Source of the DNA: Escherichia phage FL23
Reading direction: 5' to 3' (one strand)
Sequence record: PP400787
DNA length: 64,000 nt
Below the pieces are notes generated by a model that was not told the origin of the DNA, ran no database searches, and saw nothing but the letters and a program-made list of their open reading frames with translations. Position 1 is the stretch's first letter, and every line of letters begins with the position of its first letter. This document shows, piece by piece, positions 55,834 to 55,867 of this stretch. The translations under genes were made by a program, and so were the position numbers.

Positions 55834-55854
55834 TATAAATACCTTCTATAAATA
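55834..55854 (+). promoter_or_regulatory. Two late promoter cores (TATAAATA at 55834-55841 and 55847-55854) upstream of gene e
   Basis: Exact octamers; the proximal one lies in the loop of the RBS-sequestering hairpin. Confidence 0.6.
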
Positions 55855-55867
55855 CTTAGGAGGTATT
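55838..55867 (+). promoter_or_regulatory. RBS-sequestering hairpin for lysozyme gene e
   Basis: 9-bp stem aataccttc (55838-55846) with ggaggtatt (55859-55867, contains SD GGAGG); 12-nt loop contains TATAAATA. Confidence 0.6.

Follow-up and report, generated by a model that had tools for sequence, protein, structure and literature searches.

Lysozyme gene e of a T4-like Escherichia phage is probably controlled by a leader hairpin that two late promoters relieve

The short gap ahead of the lysozyme gene e in Escherichia phage FL23 very probably (at a probability of about 0.93 by our estimate) holds the translational-control leader of T4-like phages, in which a hairpin blocks translation of e early in infection and two late promoters relieve the block. 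The gap was studied within a stretch of 64,000 nucleotides from this phage (sequence record PP400787), and that whole stretch is referred to here as the window. Gene e comes last in a run of closely packed early genes of the same orientation (e.3, e.2, and nudE) and would consequently be transcribed from upstream promoters before its product is needed. On such a read-through RNA, positions 55831-55848, where an anti-SD segment CCUUC directly follows a late promoter box, would pair with positions 55857-55873, which carry the SD GGAGG and the AUG. This pairing would bury the ribosome-binding site, and lysozyme would not be made early. After DNA replication, gp55-directed RNA polymerase would start at P1 (about 55847) and at P2 (about 55860), and the transcripts from both promoters, lacking the 5′ arm, would form no hairpin and would be translated. 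The element is the switch that was characterised experimentally in T4 in 1986, found here in a close relative, and is therefore already known. Work by others on T4 has established where early and late RNA begins, the structure on the early RNA, and the translational block; from T4 we infer the same events and the exact start sites in the window phage. That early transcripts enter e untranslated and that lysozyme appears late is supported for T4 only, and the window adds a fitting gene context, packed + strand ORFs and no terminator-like site.

The window comes from a close relative of T4. Positions 55300-56700 of the window match Escherichia phage FL44 (PP400790.1; Straboviridae, Tequatrovirus) at 100% and hundreds of T4-like phages at 95-97%. 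The + strand of the window corresponds to the minus strand of the FL44 record and to the orientation of the T4 early genes; in T4 itself, e, nudE, e.2-e.6, ipII, ipIII, and denV all lie on the early-gene strand. Gene order around e matches that of T4, with a T4-type lysozyme gene directly downstream of co-oriented nudE, and the element sits in the 36-nt gap between the nudE stop codon and the ATG of e (Table 1). The 162-aa e product matches T4 lysozyme chains in the PDB (E about 1e-101). Its protein identity to T4 e is 94% by tblastn, and its C-terminus differs from that of the T4 enzyme.

Table 1. Positions in the window of the gene e leader, its neighbouring genes, and a second late-promoter locus
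Feature	Position	Strand	Basis and remarks
nudE (e.1), Nudix hydrolase gene	55376-55831	+	ORF of 151 aa; Pfam PF00293 NUDIX, E = 3.8e-13; aligns with T4 nudE
P1, upstream late promoter box TATAAATA	55834-55841	+	exact motif; overlaps the hairpin 5′ arm; predicted +1 about 55847, just past the anti-SD
P2, loop late promoter box TATAAATA	55847-55854	+	exact motif at the hairpin top; predicted +1 about 55860, inside the SD
Hairpin 5′ arm	55831-55848	+	minimum-energy fold and inverted repeat; core anti-SD CCUUC at 55842-55846
Hairpin 3′ arm with SD GGAGG (55859-55863) and AUG (55868-55870)	55857-55873	+	minimum-energy fold; mean unpaired probability 0.01-0.02 in modelled read-through RNA
Gene e, T4-type lysozyme (endolysin), 162 aa	55868-56356	+	ORF; Pfam PF00959
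Baseplate-hub gene, 249 aa	5601-6350	-	matches phrog_150
Baseplate-hub gene, 208 aa	6401-7027	+	matches phrog_150

The proposed switch requires RNA that runs into e from upstream. The ORFs that precede e (54152-55831) share the + strand, each abutting or overlapping its neighbour, and a terminator scan of the window called no + strand terminator-like site between 54635 and e; RNA polymerase that has entered nudE should therefore carry on into e. A consensus scan for an upstream promoter returned sigma-70-like matches at chance level (18 found versus 19.0 expected), and a pattern search for MotA-type (middle promoter) sites found none in 52000-55868. Two sigma-70-like sites, at 53946-53973 and 54812-54840, are common to the window and T4 as consensus matches only, and the software-annotated promoters of phage Lutter in the region upstream of e fall within coding sequence. 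The source of the read-through RNA in the window phage is taken over from T4 and is presumably the same.

The element reads TTTATAAATACCTTCTATAAATACTTAGGAGGTATTATG. A preliminary description of this DNA, made by a model from the sequence alone, had proposed a 9-bp stem that pairs the SD with an upstream segment, and the stem is present as claimed: AATACCTTC at 55838-55846 and GGAGGTATT at 55859-55867 form 8 Watson-Crick pairs and one G.U pair (U55845.G55860), with the SD inside the 3′ arm and the ATG immediately after it. The same inverted repeat was found independently as 11-nt arms (55838-55848 and 55857-55867) around an 8-nt spacer. RNA folding of 55830-55875 with ViennaRNA, which had been suggested as a check on the stem, gave -16.2 kcal/mol (z = -5.46), a value that 0 of 200 dinucleotide shuffles equalled. 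The minimum-energy fold of this segment is longer than 9 bp. It comprises 17 pairs, one bulged A, and an 8-nt loop, with 55840-55848 paired to 55857-55865 and 55831-55838 paired to 55866-55873, and the AUG is paired in it as well as the SD. The hairpin is retained in a 141-nt context. On read-through RNA, a stable hairpin is thus predicted to pair both the SD and the AUG with the upstream segment. No curated Rfam family reached its gathering threshold in 55500-56200, where matches stayed at chance level, at or below 16.1 bits against thresholds of 50-80. The anti-SD arm AATACCTTC also has a second, 9-nt complement of 89% identity, GAAGGTCTT, at 55898-55906 in codons 11-13 of e. T4 carries a mismatch at that site (GAACGTCTT; GAACGT), and for that reason the alternative pairing of the 5′ arm was set aside as probably a chance match.

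A hairpin directly after the nudE stop codon also invites the reading that it is an intrinsic terminator, one that would end the nudE early unit and keep early transcripts from ever reaching e. Software has in fact labelled the homologous hairpin of Mosigvirus G2285 (MK327933; 319-342 of our locus L057) a 'putative transcriptional terminator, -12.00'. However, the terminator scan calls no + strand site at 55831-55880, the AU-rich stem contains only 3 G-C pairs, and the tail UUAUGAAUAUAUUU is not a U-tract, U accounting for 4 of the 8 nt that follow the core stem. The hairpin shares with Rho-independent terminators its position right after a stop codon, but it lacks the U-tract that goes with their G+C-rich stem, and it differs from them in overlapping the SD and AUG of the next gene, which make up its 3′ arm. 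In T4, moreover, e RNA is present early (PMC9697503), and early transcripts extend into e according to the treatment of this gene in PMC3014915. Termination is accordingly a very improbable account of the hairpin, and translational control remains the preferred one.

The late promoters call for a revision of the preliminary description. It took the 12-nt loop to be exactly one late promoter, and 55847-55858 (TATAAATACTTA) does begin with the box TATAAATA (P2), but a second and identical box, P1, went undescribed: the start coordinate given for the feature touches P1, and the text makes no mention of it. P1 lies 13 nt upstream of P2, and each is part of one copy of a direct repeat, TATAAATAC twice, with starts at 55834 and 55847. 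The motif TATAAATA is enriched in the window, with 23 occurrences found versus 9.9 expected and 0 of 100 shuffles reaching 23. Because T4 late promoters consist of an 8-bp TATA box at the -10 position (PMC2988020), the two boxes are predicted to direct starts within or just after the hairpin 5′ strand, at the positions given in Table 1. The P2 box is annotated as a promoter in phage Lutter (NC_054924; 2049-2056 of our locus L001), where the label covers the loop box only. What follows the P1 box is the C-rich anti-SD CCTTC, while the other boxes of the window run into AT-rich sequence; an AT preponderance after T4 late-promoter boxes has been described (PMC2988020). A P2 transcript from 55860 would begin inside the SD and would retain only GAGG and an 8-nt leader. 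That such a short leader would be translatable is taken from the review PMC3014915, which says so for T4.

The consequences of the different starts were modelled as the free-energy cost of making 55857-55870 single-stranded. For read-through RNAs (starts at 55700, 55780, and 55820) the opening cost was 12.5-15.8 kcal/mol, and the unpaired probability was 0.01-0.02. The cost fell to 3.8-4.1 kcal/mol for RNAs that start at P1 and to 1.5-1.6 kcal/mol for those that start at P2, and the modelled late transcripts folded no better than shuffles (z = +0.7). The expectation that early read-through RNA folds and hides the ribosome-binding site agrees with these modelled costs and with what PMC3014915 relates of T4. 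The companion claim, that late transcripts start inside the structure and are open, fits the low modelled costs and needs amending in one respect, since the predicted late promoters are two and not one. As a control, the opening calculation was applied to every TATAAATA box in the window with a downstream SD and ORF. The early-minus-late differential of gene e was the largest of all (11.2 and 12.7 kcal/mol; most sites gave -2 to +4), and a C-rich anti-SD was found after no other late promoter in the window.

Comparison with T4 ties these predictions to published experiments. The window and T4 are 96% identical over nudE-e, and a 1-nt T indel is the only difference in the stretch that begins about 80 nt before the nudE stop codon and reaches 30 nt into e. 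At this indel the window is one T shorter than T4 in the T-run that precedes P1 (TAATTTATAAATA versus TAATTTTATAAATA in T4), which shifts the outermost predicted A-U pairs by one and leaves the core as it is. The T4 e leader thus stands in the same nudE-e position before the same gene, with the same two TATAAATA boxes, SD, and stem, and the likeness to T4 lysozyme control that had been pointed out from the sequence extends to identity through the hairpin and the boxes. In 366 phage records the leader is at least 99% identical over 111 nt. T4 gene e is a well-documented case of translational control by a hairpin (Uzan and Miller 2010, PMC3014915). As that review recounts it, the longer early transcripts of T4 reach into e and form an inhibitory structure (McPheeters et al. 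1986, NAR 14:5813), lysozyme synthesis from the structured RNA is about 100-fold lower than from RNA without the structure, and each of two late promoters gives RNA that is missing the 5′ strand of the structure and is translated well; the legend to its Figure 5 places mapped late 5′ ends inside the hairpin. [quoted passage not shown] The earlier interpretation is supported as right in substance, and the refinements are that there are two promoters, that the upstream one is conserved, and that the AUG is hidden too. The same switch logic is described in PMC3014915 for soc, gene 49, and I-TevI of T4 and for mobE of Aeh1 (Gibb and Edgell 2009, cited there): the SD and/or the AUG is hidden on upstream early or middle transcripts, and a late promoter near the 5′ strand yields open RNA. 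These are different genes, and their hairpin sequences are unrelated to that of gene e.

The review also supplies grounds for thinking that the hairpin might mainly protect or process the RNA, for instance by keeping T4 RegB or host RNases away from the GGAG of the SD on early transcripts. RegB cleaves early mRNAs at GGAG in their SDs, and sites held in RNA secondary structure are protected from it (PMC3014915), and the e SD contains a GGAG that is predicted to be fully paired on read-through RNA. However, the sequence 3′ of this GGAG (GUAUUAUG) is a poor fit to the strong-site consensus GGAGRAYARAA given in PMC3014915, and the translational block in T4 has direct experimental support, as presented in the same review. 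Protection would be at most an added effect of the same structure. It is plausible in that capacity, and as the main function we give it as slim a chance as termination.

How far the translational-control leader extends beyond Tequatrovirus was assessed with leaders taken from 47 IMG/VR loci encoding lysozyme relatives and from six named phages. Thirteen distinct leader classes carry a box [T/A/G]ATAAATA with an anti-SD arm right after it, and in all of them a hairpin of -11 to -17 kcal/mol covers the SD. Beside the Tequatrovirus class (FL44, T4), this arrangement is shared by the e leaders of Mosigvirus (APCEc01, G2285), Gaprivervirus (TH44), Gelderlandvirus (S16), Moonvirus (Merlin), and Jiaodavirus (PKO111), and the remaining classes come from IMG/VR contigs, including one (L043) in which the box and anti-SD stand ahead of a lysozyme only 32% identical to window e. 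The stem AAUACCxCC / GGxGGUAUU recurs in four genera. In the Gaprivervirus type a compensatory U-A to C-G change turns the SD into GGGGG. The Moonvirus and Jiaodavirus types have a different stem, CUCCUAUC / GAUAGGAG, in which the AUG-proximal AAUA/UAUU pairs are lost and loop-side UAUC/GAUA pairs, made wholly of otherwise unconstrained bases, are gained. In all classes, RNA from the predicted start would have lost most or all of its 5′ partners. Only in the T4-type (Tequatrovirus) leader does the loop hold an intact TATAAATA, and the other genera have a single box; judged from these sequences, P1 is therefore the conserved promoter and P2 a genus-level feature. Several genera have A or G in place of T at the start of the box, and promoter activity there is assumed, as it is for the putative G/AATAAATA boxes of the Moonvirus and Jiaodavirus type. 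The arrangement is absent from Aeromonas phage phiAS5 and from our loci at ≤59% identity (L026-L036 and L042). This distribution agrees with the remarks on relatives in PMC3014915, which describe similar e leaders in close T4 relatives and not in Aeh1, 44RR, 25, 31, or FelixO1.

Whether the complementarity is anything more than a functionless by-product of placing an A/T-rich box near an SD is a fair question, given that other signals account for part of each arm (AAUA comes from the box and GGAGG is the SD) and that formal covariation is not significant. In a MAFFT alignment, the column-wise covariation score was 0.138 versus 0.133, with 135 of 500 shuffles as high, and the paired cells amounted to 74.5% versus 74.6% in shuffles, with one pair changed on both sides. 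This test has low power. The box or the SD determines half of each arm, and six rows stand one column out of register, the Moonvirus and Jiaodavirus rows by a 1-nt indel; because of these constraints and the misregistered rows, the null result was not counted against the structure. It was replaced by pair lists for each sequence and by a constrained shuffle in which the box, the SD core, and the AUG were held fixed and the free bases were permuted. For the window leader, the SD was occluded as strongly in 4 of 1000 permutations, and for the other twelve classes in 0-12 of 1000. The 13 classes are phylogenetically related and so are not independent trials, yet they comprise at least three stem designs. 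The Moonvirus and Jiaodavirus stems, which replace AAUA/UAUU with pairs of free bases, argue against a by-product as well, and so does the lack of a C-rich anti-SD after the other late promoters of the window. A chance origin of the hairpin is excluded by the shuffled folds, the box-by-box control, and the constrained shuffle, and a functionless by-product is the least probable of the alternatives to translational control, with hardly any likelihood left to it.

The comparison further suggests a history for the leader, towards which we lean by a narrow margin over even odds. A single late-promoter box fused to an anti-SD may be an ancestral, portable module of the Tevenvirinae, whose stem was rebuilt several times while occlusion of the SD was kept. 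On this view P2 would have been added in Tequatrovirus only, with a TATAAAC-like loop or the 13-nt repeat TATAAATAC as its possible source, and the same design may operate at the hub promoters at 6355-6395 described below. If true, such a module would extend, and not overturn, what PMC3014915 remarks on close relatives of T4.

As a discovery the element carries little weight, being textbook temporal control by RNA structure that was shown in T4 in 1986. Its use lies elsewhere. In genome annotations the hairpin is wrongly entered as a terminator, or only one promoter of the two is marked. Across genera, the comparison shows that selection acts on occlusion of the SD beside a promoter box, not on a particular stem. 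The locus can also serve as a clean positive control for pipelines that seek promoter-in-hairpin translational switches.

Other late-promoter sites in the window deserve mention in their own right. At 6345-6406, between the two divergent baseplate-hub genes of Table 1, whose sizes fit T4 gp51 and gp26, two TATAAATA boxes lie back to back (- strand 6368-6375, + strand 6372-6379). They are flanked by an inverted repeat, GCTCCTTT (6355-6362) and AAAGGAGC (6388-6395), so the two hub SDs are complementary to each other. By modelled folding, the SD would be hidden on read-through RNA of either strand (z = -2.75 and -3.07). With early-minus-late opening differentials of 8.8 and 7.0 kcal/mol, these boxes rank directly behind gene e. 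The promoter logic appears to be the same as at gene e. The structured translation initiation regions named in the relevant part of PMC3014915 are those of e, soc, 49, and I-TevI, and the hub genes are not among them. Another pair of TATAAATA boxes overlaps convergently at 44262-44284 (+ strand 44262-44269, - strand 44277-44284) between divergent ORFs of 150 and 196 aa, with modest differentials of 2.7 and 2.8 kcal/mol.

Two further observations concern the neighbours of the leader. Upstream, the window encodes an e.2-like membrane protein of 162 aa (54906-55394) that matches phrog_2203 over its full length and overlaps the start of nudE. In the corresponding T4 stretch (2992-3461 of our T4 locus L002, - strand), the annotated e.2 has 102 aa and is 96% identical to it over 97 aa, and the 161-bp 'intergenic gap' before nudE is homologous to the remainder of the window ORF; a frameshift or truncation in the T4 reference e.2 is therefore likely. 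Downstream, gene content differs among relatives: the order in T4 is e, ipIII, ipII, denV, Lutter has denV between internal protein genes, and the window has no denV-sized ORF between e and the ipII-like gene. The e stop codon overlaps the ATG of the next ORF (ATGA, 56353-56356), which encodes an internal head protein (phrog_3499). Three successive ORFs in 56353-57428 (starts at 56353, 56802, and 57126) begin with MK[T/M]Y.EF..E, which resembles the N-terminus of the T4 internal proteins and which we take to be a capsid-targeting sequence.
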